A stretch of 64,000 nucleotides of DNA. Origin: Eledone cirrhosa. Lineage: Eukaryota. This document shows positions 7,203 to 55,320 of this stretch, piece by piece. The translations under genes were made by a program, and so were the position numbers. Numbering within the stretch: position 1 is the stretch's first letter; every line of letters starts with the position of its first letter. Location of the stretch: the NCBI GenBank assembly GCA_964016885.1, contig OZ024740.1, positions 104,656,001 through 104,720,000 on the forward strand, in the 5' to 3' direction. The notes beneath the pieces are model-generated. The model was not told the DNA's origin. It ran no database searches and was given only the letters and a program-made list of their open reading frames with translations.

Positions 7203-7282
7203 GCTCTGCTGATGAACGACTCCAACCATGACCATCCCCACTGAAAGTTTCGCGAAATAGTCTTTTTAAGACTATACAGAGC
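7203..7282 (+). ncRNA. type I hammerhead ribozyme motif (stem II decayed)
   Basis: Stem I GCTCTG/CAGAGC; core CTGATGA 7209-7215; GAAA 7254-7257; perfect stem III ATAGTCTT/AAGACTAT; cleavage triplet ATA ending at 7276. Confidence 0.75.
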
Positions 7283-7564
7283 ATTTGTAGTTTTTCCAAA
7301 TTGAAGGATGAGTATTTAGACTTTATTTTATTCTGAGTTAAGGTTCTATTGATTTTTTCCCTGGATTTCACAAAATTTTATGGATTAATCTATGTCTTGA
7401 TTTTTTTAAAATTGAGTTTGAATTATTTTCCCACATCTTACGTTAACTATTTTTCCATTTTGACGTTATAGTCACTTATATATTACGAAATACTGTTGGC
7501 TTCACGCTCACAATAATTTATATATATATATATATATATATATATATATATATATATATACATA

Positions 7565-8988
7565 TGAATGGCTTGTGAAACATGTACAAGCCATGTATAG
7601 GGGAGCAGTCAGCAAAGTTAGGGTTATCAATGACTATAGCGGGGAATTTAGCATATAGGTCGGTGTCCACTAAGGCTCTATTCTTAGCCCTCTCCTGTTT
7701 ATTATTGTATTGCAAGCTATAACTTAGACCGGATGCCCACTTCTGTATGCAGATGATCTTACACTTATAGCTGAATCTATGGCGGAACTAGAGAAGAAAT
7801 TCCAAACATGGAAGCTGGGACTAGAAAGAAGGGGTCTCAAAGTCAACCTGACAAAGACTAAGGTCCTCATAAGTAGATGAGAAAACAGAACCCAGATCCT
7901 CTCAGGGAAATGGCCTTGCTCAGTATGTAGGAAAGGTGTAGGCAGGAATTCCATCCTCTTGCCCCAAATGCAAACTATGAGTACACAAGAGATGTAGTGG
8001 GATCTCAGGAAGCTTAGTTAAGAATGTAGGCTTTACATGTAGCAGCTGCACCGGGACAGTAATCAGCAAATGGTCACAGGAAACAAGCACTACCAAACTC
8101 TGGGAGGGCTCTGTAGAAACAGTAGACAGCTTCTGCTATCTAGCTGACCAAATTAGCAGTGGAGGTGGGTGTTCTGAAAGTACAGTAACCAGGGTAAGAA
8201 CAGGATGGAAGAAGTTCAGGGAACTACTGCCACTGCTAGCTGCAAAAGGCTTTTCCCTCAAAATGAAAGGCAGACTGTATGATTCGTGCATACGAATAGC
8301 AATGTTACATGGTAGTGAGACCTGGGCGCTGTGTGTAGAAGATTTGCGTGGATTAGAAAGAAACGAAGCTTGCATGTTCCAATGGATGTGTAATAGTAAT
8401 ATACGCAAACAGCAAAGCATAAACGAATTGAGAGAGAGAGAGTGAGCATAAGAGGAATCAAATGCTGTGTGCAGGAGAGGCGGTTGCATTGGTATGGACA
8501 TGTGATGTGTATGAAGGATGACAACTGCATAAAAAGGTGCAGAGCACTAGAAGTCAATGGAAGCCTTGGAATGGGGAGACCCAAGAAGACCTGTGATGAG
8601 GTGATAAAAGCTGACCTCTCAAAGGTGATGAAACATTACTGTTTCGCAGTAATACAGAAGATCTGACTTTCCATGGGTACAAGCCGAAGCTGAAGCATGT
8701 AGACAATATGCCTCCACCCCCTCCCACTGCAAAGTGGTCGTGGAGGTGTCACGACAAAAAAGCACCCAGTCTACACTGTAAAGTGGTAGTGTAGGCGCCA
8801 TGGTAAAAAAGCACCCAGCACTCACTGTAAATGAGGTTGGTGTTAGGATGGGCATCCAGCTGTAGAAATCAAGCCAGAATCAGTTCCTGTATGAGCAAGA
8901 TATAGTCACTCGGCCTGGCATTACCCACAACAGGACAACCCATCTAACCCATGCTAGCGTGGAAGAATGAACATAAAACGGTGATGAT
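7565..8988 (+). mobile_element. 5'-truncated degenerate RTE-PHD LINE with extended 3'UTR
   Basis: LLYADDL at ~7741, PHD-region DNA, LHGSETWAL, RRLHWYGHV, terminal CCATGCTAGCGTGG hairpin and GAT tail. Confidence 0.85.
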
Positions 8989-9136
8989 ATATATAGTTCA
9001 AGGAGACAACAAACAGGTAGAAAAAGTCTTATTAGTTTCAGGAGTACAAATAGAGACAGGATCACAATGGAGAAACAGAAAGAAGGTCCGGTAAAGACAC
9101 AAAAAATAAAACGAAAATGAAGAGGGAGGTGGCAAA

Positions 9137-9990
9137 TTGAACACTGAAATCACATCTCATATACAAAAGGCAGCAAAAACCTATGGTGGACTAGAAATTA
9201 AAGTCTGGTCTCAACGTCTCATTAAATTGGAAACTAAGATTGCTGTATATGTCTCATTTATACATACAATTGTCCATACAATTGTATTCATCCAGGAGAT
9301 GGACGTTTATACGCGGTATGTTAAAATGTTTGAACAGTTTAACCGAAAATGTTTCCTTCATATACTGGAAATAAGCTGGAAAACATGCGTTCTAGACATT
9401 GAAATTCTTGCAAGGGCAAAAGTATTATCTACTCAAGCTATACTTATTAAAAAATCAGTTAAGATAGATTGTCACATGATTCATATCGGTGACAGACACA
9501 ACCCCAAAATGTTTCATGGTGAACTCAAGCTGTGCAAAAGGATAAATAGTAAGCCAAGGAGGAGATATAGAGACTCTCTTAAAGTGAACTTAAAATGTCT
9601 TAACATATCCTATAAAAATCTTGAATCATGTGCAGTAGATAGAGTAGCCTGGAGAAATGCCATTTGGAATTGGAATTAAAGCATTTGAAATGGAGAGGGT
9701 AAAACATGCTGAACTGAAAAGAAAAGTGTGGAAGAATGAGACCAACAGTAATAATGATGAAGTTTATTCAGGATTAGTTTTCAAATTCCCTGTGTGCCCT
9801 AAGGTGTGCCTTTCATATGCTGGCGTGAAGTCACACCAATGAGCACATGATAGTAAAGTCCAAGTTGACTATTCAAAGTTTGTTGCAGCGAATCAGTTCC
9901 AGTACCATTTTTGTTGGACAATTTGCAAATCAGGTGGTGGACTGAAGCAAGTTGAACATACACAATAAGCAAACCAAAAGAGGAAACAAG
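9137..9990 (+). mobile_element. old 3' fragment of the zinc-finger RTE lineage
   Basis: EITSHIQKA...FHGELK...KPRRRYRDSLK...DRVAWR followed by a decayed C2H2 finger (VCPKVCLSYAGVKSH). Confidence 0.75.
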
Positions 9991-10176
9991 AACGAAATGC
10001 GACATCATTGTACTATTCTTGGATAGGTCTTTCACAGGCTTTCAGGACTCAAAAGCCATTTGAGTTCTCATGCCAGGAAGGAACATACAAAGTGTAAGAA
10101 ATGGCCAAGCTTTGTACAGAGCAGATGACCTTCATTTATATGTATACACACACACACACACACACACATATATATA

Positions 10177-53922: not shown

Positions 53923-54230
53923 TCATCATCATTTCATTTTACGTTCGCTTTTTCCCTGCTTGCAAGGGTGGGACGGGAACTGATTCTGGCTTGATTTCTA
54001 CAGCTGGATGCCCTTCCTAACACCAACCTCATTTACAGTGAGGGCTGGGTGCTTTTTTTGGTGTGGCACCTCCACGACCACTTCTACACGACCATTTCTA
54101 CAGCTGAGTAAACTGGACCAATGTGAAATAAAGTGTCTTGCTCAAGGAAACAACACATCACCCGGTCTGAGAATTGAACTCACAACCTTTCGATTGCAAG
54201 GCCAATGCTCTAATCACTAAGCTATGTGCC
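53923..54230 (-). mobile_element. composite tRNA/RTE SINE (second copy)
   Basis: Aligns to 37068-37446. Confidence 0.8.
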
Positions 54231-54415
54231 TATATATATATATATATATATATATATATATATATATATATATATATATATATATATATATATATATATA
54301 TATATATATATATATATATATATATATATATATATATATATATATATATATATATATATATATATATATATATATATATATATATATATATATATATATA
54401 TATATATATATATAT
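54231..54415. repeat. pure (TA)n, ~185 bp
   Basis: Directly visible. Confidence 0.97.
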
Positions 54416-54531
54416 CGTTTTCGGTATGCCTGACCTTAACTCACTCGATATGCAAATTAGGCTGCTCAGCCATTAATTTTCATAAGGGAAGTATATACTT
54501 TCGAACGTTCAACTATCTGGCAGAAGGGTAT

Positions 54532-54574
54532 ACGGTGCTGATGATAGCTAACAAGCTTGAAACTAGTACATCGT
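54532..54574 (+). ncRNA. minimal type I hammerhead (Penelope-like type)
   Basis: ACGGTG-CTGATGA-T-AGCT aaca AGCT-T-GAAA-CTAG-TA-CATCGT: stem I ACGGTG/CATCGT (one G-U), palindromic stem III ACTAGT, GTA site at 54568. Confidence 0.75.
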
Positions 54575-54957
54575 TCCTGTGTCAGTGTTGAACAAAAAGG
54601 TGACGTGGTTGCCTTAACACTGTATGGCATAAATCAGGCTGTTCAGTTTGTTTACAAACGAACAAAGTGGCGTTATAATAAGCGTCCGCTAAACTGATAC
54701 GTGCATATATGTATGTGTACCTGTATGTGTATATATATATATGTATATATATATGCATGCTACTGTACGTCTGTATACATATATGTATGTACGTATACAT
54801 ACATACTTACATTTAAGTAAGTGCCGTACTAAGAGTGAGAAATGAAATTTCGTTTTCATTTTATTTCAACTTATATATATATATATATACATATATATAT
54901 ATATATATATATATATATATATAGGAAAATGTGTGTAATCCTTGGTACAGTTAGGTA

Positions 54958-55320
54958 TATTAAAACAGGGGGGAAGAAAAAATGGCTTCACTTGTGCTTT
55001 CAACAATTTTATTTTCTTCACAAAATCCAAAAAGAATTTTTTTCCCGGATTGGAAAAAAATTTTTTTTCTTAAAAAAAATTATTTTATAAATTAAGTCTT
55101 TGACAAGCGCACCTCAGCGTGAAAGGTCGTTCTAAAAACGAAACAATACCTCCTACGTTAACCAAGAACTCCTAAGACCTAACTTAATTTATAAAATAAT
55201 TTTTTTAAGAAAAAATTTTTTTTTCTAATCCGGGAAAAAAAATCTTTTTGGATTTTGTGAAGAAAATAAATTTGTTGAAAGCACAAGTGAAGCCATTTTT
55301 TCTTCCCCCCTGTCTTAATA
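54958..55320. repeat. ~140-bp inverted repeat with 84-bp spacer
   Basis: 54958-55097 is the reverse complement of 55182-55320 with few mismatches; the same peptide appears in ORFs on opposite strands. Confidence 0.9.
55092..55182 (+). ncRNA. type I hammerhead motif, U3-A8 core, extended stem III
   Basis: Stem I TTAAGTCT/AGACCTAA (one mismatch); core TTGACAA 55100-55106; stem II GCGC/GCGT; GAAA 55121-55124; stem III AGG..GTTCT/AGAAC.CCT; CTA site at 55174. Confidence 0.6.

Follow-up and report, generated by a model that had tools for sequence, protein, structure and literature searches.

Six hammerhead motifs in a 64-kb stretch of the Eledone cirrhosa genome as probable ends of Penelope-like elements and one retrozyme-like unit

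We analyzed a 64-kb stretch (G000:C1:104656001-104720000, the window) of the 3.0-Gb genome of Eledone cirrhosa, in which an earlier note had placed six type I hammerhead ribozymes on the plus strand; the sites are lettered A (7203), C (33085), B (36732), D (41466), E (54532), and F (55092). In the reading that we prefer (probability about 0.85), the motifs go back to six independent insertions, five 5'-truncated ends of Penelope-like elements (PLEs) and one monomer of a tandem unit, each with the predicted hammerhead of its family, and their common orientation is likely due to chance. The cluster is genuine and the observation partly confirmed, while its interpretation is partly supported: the identity of the motifs as type I hammerheads of PLEs and retrozymes was borne out, but the set cannot be described as non-autonomous RNAs, as five of the six families join open reading frames (ORFs) for a reverse transcriptase (RT) and a GIY-YIG nuclease elsewhere in the genome and A alone is retrozyme-like.

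Hammerhead motifs and their state in the window

At all six coordinates, a helix I can be drawn on the plus strand, with the coordinate marking its 5' strand. All six window copies, as well as the consensuses, contained CUGANGA (or its U3-A8 form), GAAA, and NUH in type I order. The core and three stems claimed for every site were intact in A, B, and E (7203, 36732, and 54532); C, D, and F were damaged in the window. The copies at 33085 and 41466 are mutated versions of motifs that are intact in their families: in C, the helix III palindrome is broken and the base of helix II has a mismatch; in D, two helix I pairs are broken. At 55092, the copy starts two bases before the core, where an inverted arm displaces and replaces the helix I 5' strand of family F. 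Judging by these changes, the C, D, and F copies are probably inactive, and we infer that the solo copies of the window are mostly inert. The family consensuses of C and D keep the core and the stems. Helices I–III were supported by covariation in the C/D clade and among relatives of A and E (those of B were drawn), which, at the sequence level, shows that hammerhead folds are kept by selection on the families.

A strict descriptor recovered three of the six motifs (cores at 7209, 36736, and 54538) and no others in the window, against 0.05 matches per shuffle in 20 shuffles. With a relaxed descriptor the comparison held only in part: it added 55100 but also four other, unrelated matches (one plus, three minus), with a shuffle mean of 1.65. 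C and D were missed by both descriptors because their window copies are mutated. An Rfam scan of the window revealed no hammerhead family among 100 matches with E values up to 5. No further hammerheads, scrambled forms included, were found among 58 core-like heptamers outside ORFs of long interspersed nuclear elements (LINEs), 20 of them in repeats; beyond the given motifs, the heptamer at 60176 alone was followed up and the rest were dismissed by eye. It belongs to a miniature inverted-repeat transposable element at 60060-60290 with TTAA-type ends, presumably piggyBac-like, and was rejected as a ribozyme.

The surroundings of the motifs had been described as AT-rich islands of 250–400 bp next to (TA)n. 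Except at 41466, the cores (five of six) are no more than 330 bp away from (TA)4+, and such a tract occurs within 400 bp of 36% of random positions; the elements themselves measure about 230–950 bp, so not all of them fit the proposed island size. The count of about five unrelated families was roughly right, except that D is a sister subfamily of C and that E shares their protein type. No Penelope ORF is present in the window, as had been stated: tblastn with nine PLE peptides gave zero matches at E 0.01.

Families of the motifs and their coding elements

The six sites are dispersed repeats with 283–1927 first-look candidates per family, and the family copies have fixed 3' ends and ragged 5' ends. 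At loci outside the window, an RT/GIY-YIG ORF was collinear with the hammerhead-bearing end in families B–F. Of 30 B loci, three (L003, L012, L018) encode the GIY-YIG domain at a distance of about 400 nt upstream. For C, L097 and L102 have GIY-YIG upstream and L273 has an ORF start downstream; for D, RT and GIY-YIG were encoded 1.6 kb upstream in L187, with an ORF start downstream in L140. Both domains were located upstream of F in L183, L185, and L186, and in L199 the RT frame abuts the pseudo-long terminal repeat (pLTR) of E at an inversion, the nuclease frame being 2.5 kb upstream. Pfam detected GIY-YIG in five of ten peptides scanned, three of them above the cut-off. Since families B–F join such ORFs, their window copies are 5'-truncated ends of coding elements. 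The features by which endonuclease-containing (EN+) PLEs are recognized, namely 5' truncation, tandem and inverted arrangements, and microsatellite targets, were all observed in B–F.

By their protein motifs, C, D, E, and a sister subfamily, G, are Hydra-type, and B and F are Neptune/Nematis-type; these calls rest on motifs and not on an RT tree, and Neptune and Nematis were not separated. DKT replaced DKG in peptides of L348, L199, and L196 (the D fragment ends short of this region), the CxCX5C linker was present in E and G (a D copy has Y at the first C), and CxxC preceded a conserved E in D, E, and G. The position of the RWK motif was occupied by RWR in L348 and by RWK in the neighboring element L350 (by eye). 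B and F possessed the CX2-5CxxC linker before GIY-YIG. Nematis had been considered as the clade for C, D, and E and was dropped after the motif check. Subfamily G provided a full pLTR–ORF–pLTR element (L348) with an open frame of 813 codons, which begins about 360 nt after the first hammerhead; the second hammerhead follows the first at 6.68 kb.

Hydra-clade PLEs described by Craig et al. (2021, PMC8557442) resemble C, D, E, and G in the C-terminal GIY-YIG, DKT, and insertion into (TA)n, and share the CxCX5C linker with E and G. The CUGAUGA-U...U-GAA design of E is the same as in the Hydra rows of File S2 of that paper. On the other hand, C, D, and G differ from these hammerheads in an 8-nt palindromic helix III and in having a U3-A8 subfamily, and the G element, 6.7 kb with a 3' region of 3.9 kb, exceeds the length of under about 3 kb described there. 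Published solo motifs of truncated PLEs share with the window the palindromic helix III, the U3-A8 variant, inverted pairs, and an additional base where helix II begins on its 5' side; the helix II described there as "larger than usual" has 6–8 bp.

In the window, family B is represented by a solo 3' end of the Neptune/Nematis type on the plus strand (36590..36856, family coverage from 36638) between (TA)n tracts. Its minimal hammerhead (36732..36767) is intact and has a 4-bp helix I, the core at 36736, a 4-bp helix II, and a helix III consisting of the ACGU palindrome, with U as H17. Family E (54416..54870, plus) is a young Hydra-type 3' end behind a (TA)n tract of 92 units; its intact hammerhead (54532..54574) has a 6-bp helix I, the core at 54538, a helix II of U.U followed by 4 bp, and an ACUAGU palindrome. 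Family C (32920..33415, plus) is a Hydra-type 3' end (pLTR) with (TA)n at its end, and its hammerhead spans 33085..33219, with the C3-G8 core at 33092, GAAA at 33201, and a helix II domain of 102 nt (33099-33200); one change breaks the palindromic helix III. Family D (40812..41757, plus; 5' border approximate) comprises a 3' untranslated region (UTR) and a pLTR, also Hydra-type. The D hammerhead (41463..41602) has the U3-A8 core at 41472, GAAA at 41582, a helix II domain of 103 nt (41479-41581), and an intact palindromic helix III.

A piece on the plus strand at 32970..33084, which we take to be a short interspersed nuclear element (SINE) from its B-box-like start, stands exactly 5' of helix I of C. 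It has spread with one C subfamily; the other C copies lack it and read straight through. At the 3' end of the C, D, and G pLTRs, where copies stop, a conserved 19-base block is followed by a small hairpin with compensatory changes (window 33358-33410 and 41725-41757; L348:770-830); this is a candidate signal for the start of reverse transcription.

Family F consists of an inverted arm on the minus strand (54965..55097), a family 3' end with no ribozyme core, and a forward arm on the plus strand (55099..55310), a PLE end of the Neptune/Nematis type that starts at the U3-A8 core (55100). With a 4-bp helix II, a long helix III, and the helix I 5' strand lost, it is the weakest of the motifs, and there is an appreciable, though minor, chance that it merely resembles a hammerhead at a PLE end. 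Such a chance likeness would agree with the consensus helix I of 3 bp, with the shuffle mean of the relaxed descriptor given above, and with the fold of a consensus copy (z −0.88). However, the motif is placed where PLE hammerheads are usually located, about 210 nt before the 3' end of an RT/GIY-YIG element, its U3-A8 core and 4-bp helix II recur in other families of the flanks, and the predicted fold shows helices II and III. Head-to-head junctions of F within a few bases of the 5' side of the core, like that of the window copy, were seen at G000:C1:176912690-176912751 and in three similar pairs, the search pattern partly selecting for them.

Family A (6901..7519, plus) is about one monomer of a non-coding tandem unit of 628–652 bp, located between (TA)n tracts. 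Its hammerhead (7203..7282) has a 6-bp helix I, the core at 7209, a helix II base of 3 bp with a loop of about 30 nt, and an 8-bp helix III, with the cut predicted after A7276. The genome contained 1,915 exact matches and arrays of up to eight units at 628 bp; the units are head-to-tail with one hammerhead each, the longest Met-ORF has 50 codons, and helix II shows a C-G/U-A swap among relatives. These data fit a non-LTR retrozyme. Like the metazoan non-LTR retrozymes (PMC7229834; bioRxiv 10.64898/2026.07.22.740005), A has head-to-tail non-coding units with one type I hammerhead each, low GC (34% in A), and many solo monomers. Its unit is larger than the 150–450 bp first described in these sources but within the preprint range of 51–972 bp, and its 8-bp helix III and long loop II differ from the 1–2-bp helix III of the retrozymes described. 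A Helitron-like element with a PIF1 helicase (L192:2263-7441) lies between two A copies 9.2 kb apart; as a part of A it was set aside, being a neighbor.

What holds for A could be extended to all six sites, as a community of non-autonomous retrozyme RNAs moving as circles, and the ends of E do form short tandems (three copies 465–517 bp apart in L199). However, families B–F are linked to coding ORFs, with 5' truncation and inversions among their copies, and we regard a retrozyme origin of the whole set as very unlikely.

PLE nucleases favor AT-rich targets, RT starts inside the RNA, and hammerheads with a palindromic helix III cut weakly, as dimers (PMC4209133, PMC8557442, PMC7229834). In our reading of truncated PLE ends, the GIY-YIG nuclease of the element would cut AT-rich or (TA)n DNA and its RT would start a few hundred bases downstream of the ribozyme; short products would then be little more than the pLTR and the hammerhead. 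The palindromic forms B, C, D, and E fit the dimer-cleavage model proposed earlier; with this helix III alone, cutting would need a second copy or a protein of the element. A plus-strand transcript of A could, by prediction, cut by itself as a monomer; its cleavage would release units of about 630 nt that would circularize, and A likely borrows PLE enzymes. The Poseidon element PAc of Anolis (PMC11167929) is a model for an RT start in the 5' region of the transcript and for AT-rich targets; it differs in clade and in that its ORF starts inside helix II, whereas here the ORF follows about 290–370 nt downstream of the ribozyme.

Long helix II of the C, D, and G subfamilies

A long-armed Hydra-type clade comprises at least four subfamilies, C and D among them, and its helix II has grown into a rod of about 100 nt. 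A pattern covering distal helix II and helix III had 15,286 exact matches in the genome (7,582 + 7,704) and zero in the control. The helix II domain measured 95–126 nt in 112 unique copies and its predicted fold is a bulged rod (z between −2.3 and −9.9 for 11 copies against crude shuffles). Among 79 unique long-arm copies, the core pair was held in 78 (C-G, or U-A in D, a C3-G8/U3-A8 swap), eight basal pairs of helix II, which swap between G-C, A-U, and U-A, in 73–77, and seven pairs of helix I in 73–78; these figures count copies, not events, and the copies were picked by the helix III motif. Pairing was 0.84 and 0.97 for the real partners versus 0.31–0.54 in controls with slid partners.

The clade appears to have been active recently: 40 of 40 scored matches were identical over 161 bp, and tandem arrays of 6-kb units were present. 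Four G units in tandem at G000:C2:170426477-170444812, with a spacing of about 6.06 kb and identical over the 161-bp query, likely mark a recently active source locus.

Loop 2 of Hydra hammerheads has 3–10 nt on stems of 3–7 bp (PMC8557442, File S2), far from the 95–126 nt of the C/D/G domain, and the largest helix II in the table of that paper, from a spike-moss element, spans about 53 nt. Neither a helix II of about 100 nt nor an intron inside helix II was found in the literature searched (mostly open papers, with the supplement of PMC8557442); as far as these searches reach, the long helix II is a new variant. In the right flank (L211-L219; window +73.6, +93.5, +94.8, and +122.3 kb), other hammerhead families with a helix II of 9–11 bp and AUAUAUAU or AUGCGCAU palindromes were observed.

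Many of the short copies in the long-armed clade start immediately 5' of helix I. The 5' ends fell at −20 to −3 from the core in 9 of 29 D copies, which were fetched by sequence downstream of the ribozyme, and in 7 of 20 pattern-selected G loci, equal to five insertions. Ends of C at −7 (11 of 29) proved to be mostly an artefact of the SINE in the reference, and nine rows were dropped. TCATTA, an initiator-like word, occupied −9 to −4 in 15 of 23 G copies and in 10 of 27 from C; most D copies lack it there. The ends 3–20 bases before the core in D and G likely mark transcription starts. Because copies begin there, most templates were probably uncleaved RNA. An uncleaved template would agree with the in vitro result for PAc, whose main template is uncleaved RNA (PMC11167929).

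The rod also contains splice-like signals. A donor-like GTATGT or GTAAGT was present in 98 of 112 unique rod copies, with GTAAGT in D, and an acceptor-like TACATAG or TATATAG, 42–54 nt from the donor, in 95 of 112, a count inflated by the inclusion of the acceptor motif in one search pattern. In the window, these signals delimit putative intron-like GT...AG segments inside helix II on the plus strand, of 47 nt in C (33116..33162) and 45 nt in D (41496..41540). G, C, and D have TTTAG|TTGAG about 45 nt before ATG in common. Helix II may thus hold the donor of an intron in the 5' UTR of the element, running to the AG in the rod or to the TTTAG before the start codon, and splicing would remodel or remove the ribozyme. 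We consider this doubtful. Both motifs are fixed while the basal helix covaries, D has switched to the other common donor, and the TTTAG|TTGAG sequence is kept in all three subfamilies; moreover, Penelope and Chlamys-3 carry 5'-UTR introns (PMC8557442). Against splicing, the rod fold would bury the donor, 42–54 nt is short for an intron, the acceptor count is inflated, and an internal promoter or a site for protein binding could also account for the fixed motifs. An exact GT–AG deletion was seen in 0 of 24 shortened genomic copies (by eye; one of them looks unrelated), a weak negative because PLEs are known to keep introns. One sample, in its three contig runs, which are of unknown kind, showed no intron-like joint at D; the sole joint was 41552-41591 (GT..TC). 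The intron known from Drosophila ends at helix I, outside helix II, whereas the putative C/D intron lies inside it.

Density, orientation, and other elements of the window

A single scan counted 3 matches for the window and 12 for the 264 kb around it. Twenty random stretches of 10 kb yielded 11, of which one looks like chance, and shuffles yielded 0–1. Three per 64 kb against 11 per 200 kb makes the density of the window average; the set had been called dense, and its density is the same as the genome background.

The shared orientation had been attributed tentatively either to selection against self-cleavage of a minus-strand pre-mRNA from a TMDD1-like gene or to chance at n = 6. The ORF at 738-1478 on the minus strand has octopod homologues with 58–60% identity; its TMDD1-like label was not confirmed, the three homologues being unnamed or "uncharacterized" and Pfam giving no match. 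In the flanks (390 of 454 kb), nine insertions were plus and seven minus, with four inverted pairs; for this count, family copies were merged by hand into insertions, and the rows at 55001 and 55185 (T-rich arm matches) were left out. The plus-strand run comprised eight insertions from −35 kb to +55 kb, and such a run among 22 has P = 0.063.

If the window lay in a long 5' intron of the gene at 738-1478, or in another minus-strand transcript, sense hammerheads could have been purged for cutting the pre-mRNA. All six window motifs and the eight successive insertions are plus, a possible splice acceptor was seen by eye upstream of the ORF, near 1746, the window has seven plus and four minus RTE fragments (37:31 overall), and Xenopus introns are depleted of retrozymes (bioRxiv 10.64898/2026.07.22.740005). 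At the same time, the run was chosen after the fact, the flanks are nearly balanced, three of the six window copies are damaged, no window-spanning transcript was shown, and the search found no upstream exon. Solitary motifs with a palindromic helix III were uncleaved as monomers in PMC4209133, and poly(A) or splice signals of the elements could equally cause a bias. Purging is improbable and the selection idea unsupported; chance is the likely cause of the shared orientation.

Several findings weigh against our reading of five truncated PLE ends and one tandem-unit monomer with chance orientation. The link between the E nuclease ORF and its pLTR, over 2.5 kb, is the least fully traced of the five, and the full L348 protein had no Pfam match at E 0.1. 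The F consensus combines its short helix I with a G.U first pair in helix II, and the family is too young to be tested for covariation, its 302 matches being near-identical. The search for a helper element of A found none: PLE protein matches occurred at 6 of 60 loci, and all three whose sequence was read were separate inserts. The start-site reading uses BLAST-defined ends of top-scoring copies, and two of 29 D and two of 29 C ends lie within three bases of the cut site. Taken alone, six of six on one strand has P = 0.03, and this, with the plus lean of the RTE fragments, is compatible with an unseen minus-strand transcript.

No host exon was found inside the window, and Pfam revealed no host domain there in 138 of 361 unmasked ORFs. 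Outside it, Pfam gave a CHIP TPR exon about 86 kb to the left (minus) and a weak TMEM72 match about 88 kb to the right (plus). A 107-codon frame at 50247-50570 was rejected as a host gene: it is near single-copy (two matches, one paralogue 4 Mb away), has no longer homologue, and gave a weak hAT-transposase-like lead under 0.9. The long ORFs of the window are mostly LINE pieces, for which the RTE and R4 labels are our assumption. Near-identical copies of what we take to be one LINE occur at 12210-15150 and 23083-26685, 11.5 kb apart, and the elements at 15674-18796 and 27376-28419, with motifs of a restriction-like endonuclease, are presumably R4-like. A low-complexity (CAC/ACC)-rich repeat of about 3.5 kb (45230-48708) has an extreme strand skew.

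Extrapolated from the random sample, the genome would contain roughly 150,000 intact-looking motifs, and the cluster of the window is background. The long-armed clade, whose window copies the Rfam scan missed, offers a direct test of the role of PLE hammerheads and of the keeping of introns through retrotransposition. A more speculative proposal than the intron itself, which we hold to be rather unlikely, is that in this clade of more than 15,000 copies the transcript begins at the first base of helix I and a 5'-UTR intron begins inside the 100-nt helix II, forming a splice-or-cleave switch. If so, the mRNA would lose the cutting half of the hammerhead by splicing, while in RNA with a folded rod the donor would be buried, and the template for DNA synthesis would retain both the intron and the ribozyme. 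This would give a structural reason for the retention of introns in Penelope-like elements.

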